DNA of 22,130 nt from a virus: positions 1-22,130 of IMG/VR virus record IMGVR_UViG_3300024581_002302; one strand, 5' to 3'. Positions 2,662 through 22,130 of this stretch are shown one piece after another. The translations under genes were made by a program, and so were the position numbers. The notes under the pieces are model-generated. The model made no database searches. It was not told the origin of the DNA and saw only the letters and a program-made list of their open reading frames with translations. Numbering within the stretch: position 1 is the first letter of the stretch; every line of letters starts with the position of its first letter.

Positions 2662-3548
2662 TGAGCCGCGAGAACCTCAACATCCCGATCGACAGGATCG
2701 ACTGGATGTGCAACCACCTGAACTGCGAGTTCGGGAAGGCCATCCGTCTTCTGCAGCTGTACGGCTTCATCGAGCACGTGAACTCCGTCTCGTCCGAGTA
2801 CGGGTTCAGGCAGGGCCTGTACGCCAAGAAGTCACACCAGAGCCGGACGACCGTTCGGGACGACCTGGTCTTGCTGACGAAGCTCGGCTGGATCAGCGTC
2901 ACTACCGACGCCCACGGAACCGATGTCGAACTCCTCGGAATCCCCTTCGACGGAGAGGCATGTACTCCCAGTGGTCGACCAGAGGGAGTACGTCCCCCTG
3001 CACAGAGGGAGTCCATCCCCCCGGACAGTGGGAGTCCATCAGATAAGAAGACTCTTAAGAACTCCTCTATCGAGGAGAAGAAGGACGCCCCATCCACTCT
3101 CAAGAAGGAACTCATCCTGAAGTGGAACGAGTGGAAGCCGAAGTCCTGGACCACGTTGAAGGGCATCTCCCCGTCGCGTGATGCTTCGATCCGTGCGCTC
3201 GGCGGTTACCGCGCGGTGATCGAACTGATCCCTGCGTTCATGGCTGGCGCCAAGGCGAACAAGTTCTGGGTCTCGAAGGAGATCTCGTTCGAGAACGTCA
3301 TCGGCACCGGCAAGACGCCGAAGGGTCACTTCCACGAGCTGGCAGAGCGTGGTGCGAGTGCGAACACGCACACCGCCCCGGGTACTTTGTCGCAACCCAC
3401 CAAGCGCCCCGAGCACCGCGACTTCTTCCCTCCGACCGATCCCTGGTCTGAGTTGCGGCCGAAGGTCAACGACTTCAAGGACGACGACGATCGCGATCGG
3501 CGTCATGCCGAGGCGTGGGAGTTCTACCGCCAACAGGAGGCAGCATGA
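2661..3548 (+). CDS. Phage replication initiator (lambda O-like organisation)
   Basis: N-terminal wHTH (QSRTTVRDDLVLLTKLGWISV), a central low-complexity linker carrying DNA repeats, and a position directly upstream of the helicase. Confidence 0.7.
   Translation: MSRENLNIPIDRIDWMCNHLNCEFGKAIRLLQLYGFIEHVNSVSSEYGFRQGLYAKKSHQSRTTVRDDLVLLTKLGWISVTTDAHGTDVELLGIPFDGEACTPSGRPEGVRPPAQRESIPPDSGSPSDKKTLKNSSIEEKKDAPSTLKKELILKWNEWKPKSWTTLKGISPSRDASIRALGGYRAVIELIPAFMAGAKANKFWVSKEISFENVIGTGKTPKGHFHELAERGASANTHTAPGTLSQPTKRPEHRDFFPPTDPWSELRPKVNDFKDDDDRDRRHAEAWEFYRQQEAA
2957..3070. repeat. Iteron array with adjacent AT-richer tract; probable replication origin
   Basis: Four 17-bp units spaced 23 bp apart: 2957 (inverted, CACTGGGAGTACATGCC), 2980 CAGAGGGAGTACGTCCC, 3003 CAGAGGGAGTCCATCCC, 3026 CAGTGGGAGTCCATCAG. 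They are followed by ATAAGAAGACTCTTAAGAACTCCTCTAT. Confidence 0.75.
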
Positions 3549-20312: not shown

Positions 20313-20604
20313 GCCACTGGTCCTCCCGTACCTGATCGGCTTCTGGGGACGGATTCGCGCAGAGCTTCAAAACGATGGCGCCGCTTCTGCTGTGCACCAG
20401 CTCTGGCTTCTGCGTCGTCAATCCCCCGAGGCCTGGCATGAGTTCGCGAGGAACGCCGCCGACTTCGGCCTCCCCTATCCGCAGCTCCTTCTTCTCAGCT
20501 GCCTCTGGGAATTGTCGAAGGAGGAACACCTATCAGACATCGCAGCCCGGCTGGCTGCACTTCCTGATCACTTGCTCACCGCCTTCCATGTCATCCACGA
20601 CTGA
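20305..20604 (+). CDS. Hypothetical Leu-rich protein
   Basis: GTG start overlapping the previous gene; fills the gap before the CP12-like gene. Confidence 0.55.
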   Translation: MAEPLVLPYLIGFWGRIRAELQNDGAASAVHQLWLLRRQSPEAWHEFARNAADFGLPYPQLLLLSCLWELSKEEHLSDIAARLAALPDHLLTAFHVIHD

Positions 20605-20779
20605 ATGCTCCTGTCCTCCCGGCTGCGTGTACTGCGCAAAGACCGGCGAGTGCACTTGCCCTGAACACACCGCCCCGTACTCGAACCTCGAGGACAGGCC
20701 CGAAAACCCGACCGCAAAGTTCAAGCGGTACTGCGAAGAAAACGAAGGCGCCGTCGAGTGCCGCATCTATGAGGACTGA
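20588..20779 (+). CDS. cp12: Atypical CP12-like protein with a Cys-rich N-terminus, 63 aa
   Basis: C-terminus FKRYCEENEGAVECRIYED matches the CP12 C-x8-C tail; N-terminus CSCPPGCVYCAKTGECTCPEH. Confidence 0.75.
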   Translation: MSSTTECSCPPGCVYCAKTGECTCPEHTAPYSNLEDRPENPTAKFKRYCEENEGAVECRIYED

Positions 20780-21076: not shown

Positions 21077-21370
21077 ATGTTCAAGCTCTACGCGGTCGTC
21101 AACTACAAGACGTGCGGCTGGTGCAAGAAGTTCCGCCCCGTGCTCGAAACGAACACGAAGGCGATGAACCCTCGGGCTCAGGCCATGGTCGAAGAGGTTG
21201 ACCTCTCCACCCCCGAAGGCAAGGCACTGGCCGGCCAGCTGAACTTCTCGGGTGGCATCCCCTGCCTGATCGCGCGCAAGGGCGAGACCGAGGTGTACCG
21301 CCAGCCCGGCTACCAGGACGGGACGAAGTTCGCCCAGACCCTGTTCACCCTGTTCTCGACTTACGCCTGA
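21077..21370 (+). CDS. Thioredoxin/glutaredoxin-like protein
   Basis: CGWC active site, cis-Pro motif GIPC, 97 aa. Confidence 0.85.
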   Translation: MFKLYAVVNYKTCGWCKKFRPVLETNTKAMNPRAQAMVEEVDLSTPEGKALAGQLNFSGGIPCLIARKGETEVYRQPGYQDGTKFAQTLFTLFSTYA

Positions 21371-21396: not shown

Positions 21397-21421
21397 GCCC
21401 CGGCAACTGCTGGGGCTTTTT
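21397..21421 (+). terminator. Rho-independent terminator
   Basis: GCCCCGGC-AACT-GCTGGGGC followed by T5. Confidence 0.8.
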
Positions 21422-21441
21422 AATCCCACCGACTTCATCTG

Positions 21442-22130
21442 ATGCACATCACCGTCATTCACGCACCCGAGCGCTGTGAGCCCTGCCGCGACATGGGCGA
21501 GCGCATCGAGAGCGTCGGGAGGCGAATCCCCGAGCTTCGCTCCCACATCAAGTTCCTGCACGCCGACAAGCAGGAAGTCCCGCACGACTTCTCCGTCATC
21601 CCCACGATCCTCCTGATCGATGACGAAGGCGAGGAGCTGTTCCGCTCTGAGGGTCGCGTCTCCGAGGTCCTCTTCGAGCGTCTGGCTGCAGCTGCTGTTG
21701 CTGGTGAGTACTCCCCCGAGGAGTTCAGCGAGCACGCACCCAGCGCGAACGTCGTCTTCTATCGCACCTACTCCCGCCGCACCGAGAGCGAGCAGCGCGA
21801 GACCTATCTCGAAGCGATCCATCGCGTCGCCAAGGACATCAGCACCCTCGGCAAGTTCACCGACGAGGAAGCCGACCTGGTCCTGCAGCAGGCCCTCGGC
21901 CAGCACGCCCTCCCCTCTGGCCGTTGGCTGTGGGTGGGTGGCACCCCCTGGATCAAGAAGCAGGAGAACTTCTCCGGTGCATACAACTGCACCTCGACCA
22001 GCGTCACCGATAAGGACGCCTTCGGTCTGATCATGGAGCTGGCGATGATGGGCTCCGGCACCGGTGCCATCCTCGAGGACCACATGGTCGCGAAGCTCCC
22101 GAAGGTGCTGAACGCGATCAAGATCACCAA
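21442..22130 (+). CDS. nrdJ: Class II (adenosylcobamide-dependent) ribonucleotide reductase with a fused N-terminal thioredoxin-like domain; runs off the window end
   Basis: One open frame from ATG 21442: MHITVIHAPERCEPCRDM...VIPTILLIDDEGEELFRSEG, then APSANVVFYRTYSRR...LPSGRWLWVGGT...SGAYNCTST...FGLIMELAMMGSGTG, typical of cyanobacterial-type monomeric NrdJ. Confidence 0.9.
   Translation, partial: MHITVIHAPERCEPCRDMGERIESVGRRIPELRSHIKFLHADKQEVPHDFSVIPTILLIDDEGEELFRSEGRVSEVLFERLAAAAVAGEYSPEEFSEHAPSANVVFYRTYSRRTESEQRETYLEAIHRVAKDISTLGKFTDEEADLVLQQALGQHALPSGRWLWVGGTPWIKKQENFSGAYNCTSTSVTDKDAFGLIMELAMMGSGTGAILEDHMVAKLPKVLNAIKIT

Follow-up and report, generated by a model that had tools for sequence, protein, structure and literature searches.

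Genes and features at the locus

The stretch of DNA analyzed here (the window, 22,130 nt) comes from a marine cyanobacterial virus and comprises bases 1–22130 of a 99,525-nt IMG/VR record with an estimated completeness of 93%. At its 3' end, a free gene for a thioredoxin-like protein and a terminator-like hairpin are followed by a single reading frame in which a thioredoxin-fold domain precedes a class II ribonucleotide reductase (RNR) and which runs past the end of the window (Table 1). A CP12-tail ORF also lies upstream of the fusion gene.

Table 1. Features at the 3' end of the window and in the continuation of the virus record.
Feature	Position	Strand	Basis or remark
Free 97-aa thioredoxin-like gene, CGWC	21077..21370	+	Adjoins the fusion gene on its 5' side; the P-SS2 homologue is gp010 'thioredoxin'
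Terminator-like GC hairpin and T-run	21397..21426	+	Between free thioredoxin gene and fusion gene; consensus scan
Fusion gene	21442 to 24039 of the virus record	+	865 aa; passes the window end
Thioredoxin-fold domain, residues 1–90	21442..21711	+	AF2, Foldseek, family profile, PF00085 in relatives
CEPC redox motif, C12 and C15	21475..21486	+	Start of helix 1; aligns on CGPC
P54 codon, presumed cis-proline	21601..21603	+	Falls on the cis-Pro loop (IPT) when aligned to solved thioredoxins
Predicted docking surface, residues 66–80 (beta 4, G71-R72 loop, start of last helix)	21637..21681	+	Complex prediction
Linker, residues about 88–98	21703..21735	+	Length varies among relatives
RTPR N-terminal part including C183	21727..22130, continuing to 24039	+	TIGR02505, PF21995, 1L1L

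An earlier note on this DNA had read a stop-free frame from ATG 21442 to the window end, and the ORF listing and the translation both bore this out. An in-frame TAA (21421–21423) is located 21 nt 5' of this ATG, which is therefore the earliest possible start. The contig was extended beyond the window, as had been proposed, and the full ORF was recovered with its stop at 24039 and 865 uninterrupted codons. The motifs that had been quoted were all found (CEPC at residues 12–15, VIPT with P54, LLIDDEGEELFRSEG, and APSANVVFYRTYSRR after the linker). The gene was indeed missing from the ORF track, most likely because it crosses the window end, and was listed once open-ended ORFs were allowed.

Neither a stop nor a frameshift was found at the junction of domain and reductase, and the frame is open and conserved in relatives. 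A marine-metagenome Logan contig spans 21647–21785 with 1 mismatch and 0 indels, and gives weak independent support for the frame; the four sequencing runs examined yielded just fragmentary low-depth contigs of close relatives, whose uncovered parts are uninformative. Translation from an internal start had also been raised as a way in which the two parts might be separate. Codons 18–165 hold no in-frame ATG, GTG or TTG, which rules out a canonical internal start yielding a complete, separate reductase. The linker was of low pLDDT when the domain was folded alone and reached 89–90 in the full-length AF2 model. The thioredoxin-fold domain and the class II reductase are genuinely joined in one frame, and the fusion is obligatory.

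The thioredoxin-fold domain

The first ~85 aa had been assigned a thioredoxin or glutaredoxin fold; the fold was recovered over residues 1–90 and is of the thioredoxin type. Residues 1–90 were modeled by AF2 with the family alignment at pLDDT 93–97, in a beta-alpha-beta / beta-beta-alpha arrangement (beta 2–7, helix 13–35, beta 36–40, beta 55–59, beta 65–70, helix 75–87). When the domain was submitted to Foldseek, the top 50 matches were thioredoxins, thioredoxin-fold proteins or thioredoxin-fusion chains, the first neighbor being 9bxs_E, B. subtilis TrxA in a ribonucleotide reductase complex. Target-normalized TM-scores against stand-alone thioredoxins were about 0.5–0.65. The family profile matched about 195 PDB thioredoxin sequences (best E 1e-6), with CxPC placed on CGPC and V-P-T/P54 on the cis-Pro loop, and P54 would accordingly be in the cis conformation.

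Other measures place the domain at a distance from classical thioredoxins. PF00085 scored 15.7 bits (E 0.015) on residues 1–93 of the fusion protein, below its cut-off of 23.5, and was matched at E <= 0.01 by 29 of the 56 fused relatives (best 4e-8). Four strands are present instead of five, the first strand and helix of classical thioredoxins being absent, and the alignment begins at about residue 28–30 of thioredoxins of roughly 105 aa. The motif reads R-C-x-P-C, with R in place of the canonical W before CxxC, and so differs from WCGPC. The domain is a divergent, minimal thioredoxin-type subfamily, not a textbook member; it is called divergent because its own PF00085 score falls below the cut-off while 29 of 56 relatives and the family profile match thioredoxins. 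A glutaredoxin or NrdH identity was considered and rejected: the Glutaredoxin model PF00462 matched none of the 56 family members, the Glrx-like DUF836 model touched a single one (E 0.009), and the motif is CxPC and not of the CPYC/CVQC type.

Residues A8, C12, C15 and P54 are invariant in the 56 fused sequences, in which mean column identity is 35–36%. H7, R11, P14, R21, D42, G71 and R72 are at least 93% conserved in the same set, with P14, G71 and R72 each at 98%. By block, conservation of the domain is 0.79 at the active site, 0.53 at the predicted docking surface and 0.42 over the rest.

The class II reductase body

The reading of the remainder as a class II RNR was borne out and refined: the enzyme is a triphosphate reductase of the monomeric, host-like type (RTPR, TIGR02505). 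TIGR02505 scored 667.9 bits against a cut-off of 340.05 (residues 92–853 on positions 19–722 of the 724-position model), and the B12 insertion domain PF21995 was matched at E 2.4e-11 (44.3 bits against a cut-off of 27). Among PDB sequences, 1L1L alone was matched, in an alignment that takes in NPCGE and the C-terminal CxxxxC. The full-length AF2 model (pLDDT 89.4, pTM 0.90) was likewise closest to 1L1L by Foldseek (E 2e-36), and its C-terminal tail is predicted to be disordered, with pLDDT <50 from residue 840.

C504 (in NPCGEI), C514 and the C-terminal CTSAAC were aligned onto 1L1L by HMMER, and C183 was paired with the LNNC cysteine of 1L1L by eye only. None of 90 sequences departs from C183, C504 or C514, and conservation of C847/C852 is 90% or higher. 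From these sequence matches, residues ~96–865 are assigned as a monomeric adenosylcobalamin ribonucleoside-triphosphate reductase of the L. leichmannii type, for which adenosylcobalamin-dependent activity is predicted.

Some cyanophage 'class II' reductases were later moved to class I, and the P60 clade was kept as genuine class II cyanophage enzymes (PMC6370689). The fusion gene is related to the P60 clade at the DNA level. When the 99.5-kb record (an estimated 93% complete) was searched with the class I beta subunit model PF00268, no match at E <= 1 was obtained; a very divergent beta subunit could escape this model. A class I or class O enzyme misnamed class II was rejected on the TIGR02505, PF21995 and 1L1L matches and the absence of PF00268.

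Predicted docking of the domain on the body

The domain (residues 1–92) and the body (residues 96–865) were submitted to complex prediction as separate chains. Docking scored 0.62; among 3 controls the highest value was 0.00. The docking mark was attained by 58 of 80 solved complexes and by 2 of 110 mismatched pairs, counts that hold roughly here since our own alignment was used. Runs agreed in at least 96% of contacts, with partner pLDDT of at least 88. The predicted interface joins domain residues 66–74, 76–77 and 80 to body residues 114–127 and 825–832. The latter segment falls on helix 827–834, which precedes the flexible tail that carries the Cys pair. The CxPC residues lie outside the confidently predicted static contacts.

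Body positions at the interface differ between fused and unfused enzymes by 0.58, about twice the 0.28 of the average position (block permutation p about 0.008). K114 is present in 97% of unfused enzymes and is replaced by T, N or R in fused ones; L828 is present in 94% of unfused enzymes and is H, R or A in fused ones. Recall of a known complex by the model seems unlikely because no Trx-RTPR complex was found by sequence among solved structures. The prediction supports docking of the domain on the body, to be read as intramolecular packing and not as catalysis, the two chains being parts of one polypeptide. Taken together, these observations agree with a reductant tethered close to where the tail emerges.

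The free thioredoxin gene and the upstream region

The earlier note described the fusion correctly and left unmentioned the separate thioredoxin-like gene that adjoins it. The product of that gene matched Pfam Thioredoxin_2 at E 7e-5 and Thioredoxin at E 0.0017, both under the gathering scores, and was the only PF00085 match in the genome search. It is 82% identical to the copy in the prophage of Synechococcus sp. SYN20 and 54% identical to that of cyanophage P-SS2 (CGFC); the gene occupies the same position in both. Between the studied phage and SYN20, the fused domain is 52% identical, the whole fused protein 78% and the free thioredoxin 82%. In a distant fused clade (L008), no free thioredoxin gene was found within 6 kb.

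The free protein and the fused domain share the same minimal topology. They were aligned end-to-end by hhalign at E 0.0015, with 15% identity and a probability of 17%, and homology between the two is weakly suggested by this alignment. With the upstream copy present in three genomes, the fused domain is not the sole candidate reductant.

A hairpin with T-run similar to the one between the two genes was seen by eye at the same place in P-SS2. Rfam models, the cobalamin riboswitch included, gave no match upstream of the fusion gene at E <= 0.1. No thioredoxin reductase is encoded, PF07992 having no match in the phage genome.

Distribution and origin of the fusion

The earlier note knew of no redoxin fusion at the N-terminus of a phage NrdJ. 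By whole-protein search the fusion is carried by at least 56 sequence clusters, with full-length relatives of 854–898 aa. Carriers include the published phage P-SS2, the chromosome of Synechococcus sp. SYN20 (as a prophage), MAGs, many metagenome contigs and an IMG/VR contig, and a grx::nrdJ fusion is already listed in the literature (PMC6187632). Relatives thus do not always encode two genes, as that note had allowed they might: the fused single frame is open in at least 56 clusters. The SYN20 locus and an 86-kb contig share a P-SS2-like gene order of terminase, sigma factor, reductase and a DUF4055 gene (PF13264). A PSS2-like prophage in SYN20 was independently reported (preprint 10.1101/2025.10.05.680603).

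In a tree of the reductase body, fused forms lie on one side of a branch with 99% support, together with a single basal unfused sequence. This placement is compatible with one origin of the fusion.

No free-standing form of the domain was found by phmmer among 1.84 billion representatives, in which the two true matches were both fragments of fusions. A word-indexed profile search of 5.8 billion proteins likewise found no free-standing form; its three matches among short proteins were two fragments and one frameshifted fusion. The frameshift in a related 83-kb contig (P0133) lies directly after the domain. Among GTDB species-representative genomes, 147 pattern matches were obtained and 0 were confirmed, in a narrow pattern scan that is weak as evidence of absence. 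Two 12-residue matches in viral contigs from a single-sequence scan (L005, L006) were dismissed as chance, being out of frame in unrelated prophage genes. No PHROGs family was matched by the fused domain, the free thioredoxin or the CP12-tail ORF.

Comparison with known systems

The closest systems are P-SS2, in which the gene is gp011 'nrd' (NC_013021), and the SYN20 prophage. Both carry the same fusion in the same order (free thioredoxin gene, hairpin, fused reductase). Relative to these two, the whole protein is 66–78% identical and the domain 42–52%; the motif is CRPC in P-SS2 and CEPC in the SYN20 prophage and in the studied phage. The deposited P-SS2 CDS (856 aa) begins with an internal ATG and leaves CRPC out of the record; an in-frame ATG 25 codons upstream of the deposited start restores MKVLLLHAPDRCRPC. 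The start of the P-SS2 reference gene should accordingly be shifted 75 nt upstream. In the P-SS2 paper the gene is named only as a cyanobacterial class II RNR, beside the 'thioredoxin' gp010 (Sullivan et al., 2009, PMC2784084). P-SS2 also carries cobO, for which no match was found in the studied phage. Fused sequences have been public since 2009, and entries titled only 'ribonucleoside-triphosphate reductase' conceal the extra domain.

In the Grx::ATP-cone::NrdB protein of Facklamia ignava, the fused Grx is the enzyme's own working reductant (Rozman Grinberg et al., 2018, PMC6187632). The same work surveyed RefSeq for Grx domains, not Trx, and listed fusions to NrdA, NrdB and NrdD and to one NrdJ (grx::nrdJ, Labrenzia aggregata). 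The studied protein shares with the F. ignava type an N-terminal CxxC redoxin domain on an RNR component. The Facklamia-type domains are grxC-type, glutathione-dependent glutaredoxins, and the characterized one is on a class I radical-generating subunit, whereas the phage domain is of the thioredoxin type (CxPC), is attached to the catalytic polypeptide of a monomeric class II RNR and defines a virus-borne clade.

The L. leichmannii RTPR 1L1L (22% identity to the fusion protein) is a monomeric enzyme that matches it at the thiyl cysteine of NPCGE, the two active-site cysteines, the B12 insertion domain and the CxxxxC tail. No redoxin domain precedes 1L1L, and free thioredoxin serves as its reductant. 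A CxPC-type site with proposed or shown service to an RNR is also found in the thioredoxin of cyanophage Syn5 (bioRxiv 10.1101/2025.10.05.680603) and in B. subtilis TrxA on the class Ib RNR (9bxs). Those two are separate five-strand proteins with WCGPC; the fused domain is covalently tethered, carries R ahead of its first Cys and is missing the initial strand and helix. A systematic study of RNR extensions, in which ATP-cone distribution is discussed, deals with ATP-cones and C-terminal domains; the N-terminal domain described here is not among the extensions it names (PMC9669993). A full-text literature search returned no account of a thioredoxin-RTPR fusion in cyanophages. Redoxin-RNR fusions as such are already known.

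Proposed function and alternatives

In class I and monomeric class II RNRs, turnover oxidizes an active-site Cys pair that is re-reduced by a mobile C-terminal pair, and the C-terminal pair is itself re-reduced by thioredoxin or glutaredoxin (PMC9669993, PMC6187632). By analogy, turnover of the phage enzyme would oxidize C183/C514 to a disulfide, which would be re-reduced by the flexible pair C847/C852. The tethered thioredoxin domain, docked beside the tail-bearing helix, would then re-reduce the tail by dithiol exchange. The oxidized domain would in turn be recharged by a host thioredoxin reductase that depends on NADPH or ferredoxin, perhaps with the free phage thioredoxin as an intermediary.

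The fused domain is probably an in-cis reductant of the C-terminal tail (probability about 0.65); architecture, fold, conservation and distribution were established by the analysis, and the electron path is inferred. This is the reading of the earlier note, and architecture, fold, conservation and predicted docking make it the best-supported one. The accompanying suggestion that dNTP synthesis could become less dependent on host redoxin is half right: a host reductase is still needed to recharge the domain because the phage encodes no thioredoxin reductase. Several observations weigh against an in-cis reductant, namely the weak PF00085 score of the domain itself, the replacement of W by R, the position of CxPC outside the predicted contacts, and the faster divergence of the fused domain compared with the free thioredoxin.

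Alternatively, the domain could act as a redox switch that senses the thiol or photosynthetic state of the host and gates the reductase, for example between light and dark, with electrons supplied by free thioredoxins of host or phage. Its packing as a fixed module on body segments 114–127 and 825–832 is regulatory-like, a free thioredoxin gene is kept beside the fusion in three genomes, and monomeric RTPRs, to our knowledge, lack the ATP-cone on/off switch. An invariant CxPC with a cis-Pro is nevertheless the signature of catalytic dithiol exchange, the distant clade L008 is fused yet has no free thioredoxin gene within 6 kb, and the characterized precedent, Grx::NrdB, is a true reductant (PMC6187632); a switch is therefore considered unlikely. 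Quite improbable is a general phage thioredoxin that was tethered by chance, with other host or phage proteins as its clients and the fusion serving co-expression or stability. Phage thioredoxins are widespread and can alter host metabolism (bioRxiv 10.1101/2025.10.05.680603), and a CxPC site off the confident static interface may be open to other substrates. However, the domain family was found as an RTPR fusion only and never free, the body surface at the docking site is changed specifically in fused enzymes, and the domain surface beyond the active site and docking block is poorly conserved (0.42 mean), unlike that of a redoxin with many clients.

If the domain were a structural appendage or a vestige that plays no part in redox chemistry, serving for example folding or solubility, this would agree with the weak Pfam score of the sequence and with the faster divergence of the domain than of the remaining protein. 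A vestige would be expected to lose both cysteines and the cis-Pro, which are invariant in 56 sequences at about 35% identity, and this reading is given very little credence. The probability of an artefact, in which two genes were joined by an error of sequencing, assembly or gene calling, or a class I-like enzyme was misnamed class II, is close to negligible. Cyanophage RNRs have been misclassified before (PMC6370689), and the related contig P0133 is frameshifted directly after the domain. Against a joining error, at least 56 independent clusters have the same open frame, as do P-SS2, the SYN20 genome and the IMG/VR contig, and the junction is bridged with no indel; against a misnamed class, TIGR02505 and PF21995 are matched, PF00268 is not, and the P60 clade is acknowledged as true class II (PMC6370689).

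The in-cis reductant may also form part of a longer phage relay, a tentative extension to which a low probability is given, in which electrons would pass from a host ferredoxin/NADPH reductase to the free CGWC thioredoxin, from there to the tethered CxPC domain, and on through the tail to the active site. If such a relay were true, dNTP synthesis would be wired to host photosynthetic reducing power and replication would be light-gated in one polypeptide. The upstream CP12-tail gene would then belong to the same thiol-redox module.

Significance

Of the steps in the RNR cycle, re-reduction is understood least, since redoxin and tail touch each other only transiently. With its redoxin tethered beside the tail, a natural single-chain class II enzyme would be well suited to the trapping and imaging of this step. 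Among cyanosiphoviruses and prophages, the whole P-SS2-like lineage appears to have permanently attached a reductant of its own to the enzyme, and several members encode free thioredoxin as well. The fusion would serve as a marker of redox limitation during cyanosiphovirus replication, and its spread suggests that in marine Synechococcus and Prochlorococcus replication is limited by the reducing power available to dNTP synthesis.

Redox genes and the intergenic hairpin upstream of the fusion gene

Upstream of the gene that joins a thioredoxin-fold domain to a class II ribonucleotide reductase (RTPR), a free thioredoxin-like gene was found, and its position was kept in cyanophage P-SS2 (motif CGFC) and in the PSS2-like prophage of Synechococcus sp. 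SYN20. When this phage was compared with SYN20, the free gene was 82% conserved and the fused domain far less so (52%). The GC-rich hairpin between the two genes may mark a boundary between two transcription units, or it may attenuate read-through; an equivalent hairpin and T-run were located by eye in P-SS2. For the 63-aa Cys-rich ORF, the Pfam match (E = 4.8e-4; 21.3 bits) was slightly below the 22.7 cut-off. This CP12-tail ORF and the two redoxins form a run of three thiol-redox genes (window 20588 onward).

Positions of features in the window and in the P-SS2 locus (L003)
Feature	Position	Strand	Description
Cys-rich ORF	window 20588-20779	+	63 aa; CP12 tail (PF02672) match in C-terminal 24 residues
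Free thioredoxin-like gene	window 21077-21370	+	97 aa; CGWC; directly 5' of fusion gene
GC-rich hairpin, then T-run	window 21397-21426	+	between free thioredoxin-like gene and fusion gene
Reductase motif-coding stretch	window 22018-22077		~60 nt; codes for conserved ELAMMGSGTGAILE motif
P-SS2 hairpin and T-run	L003 about 2803-2830		equivalent of the hairpin above
P-SS2 nrd upstream segment	L003:2838-2912 (NC_013021 6778-6852)		75 nt, from in-frame ATG to deposited start

Start of the P-SS2 nrd gene

The deposited nrd CDS of P-SS2 (NC_013021) starts at an internal ATG. Translation from the in-frame ATG upstream of it yields 25 more residues, among them the conserved HAPDRCRPC motif; because these were left out of the CDS, the thioredoxin domain appears to have been cut short by the reference annotation.

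Reductase relatives and metagenome depth

Two close RTPR homologues, P0067 (1180 aa) and P0088 (1001 aa), were much longer, and Pfam domains of the intein or homing-endonuclease kind were present in them (PF05204 and PF14528; PF14890 and PF13392); some of the reductase's relatives are therefore intein hosts. In P0133 (147 aa, from an 83-kb ENA contig), the thioredoxin domain was followed by the reductase N-terminus read in a shifted frame; either the sequencing went wrong here or the fusion has broken naturally. P0084 (769 aa, locus L009) was the sole unfused reductase to group with the fused clade. On visual inspection, it looks like the host or S-CBS2 type over the N-terminal half and like the fused type over the C-terminal half, so P0084 may be a recombinant or may have lost the domain secondarily.

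Across four marine metagenomes, summed contig depth rose from ~5 to several thousand over the ELAMMGSGTGAILE-coding stretch, which is shared near-exactly with abundant contigs from other organisms, probably host nrdJ genes.

Cobalamin supply

The cob(I)alamin adenosyltransferase gene cobO has been reported in P-SS2 (PMC2784084), whereas no match to PF02572 was obtained across the whole genome record of this phage, so its adenosylcobalamin would be supplied wholly by the host.
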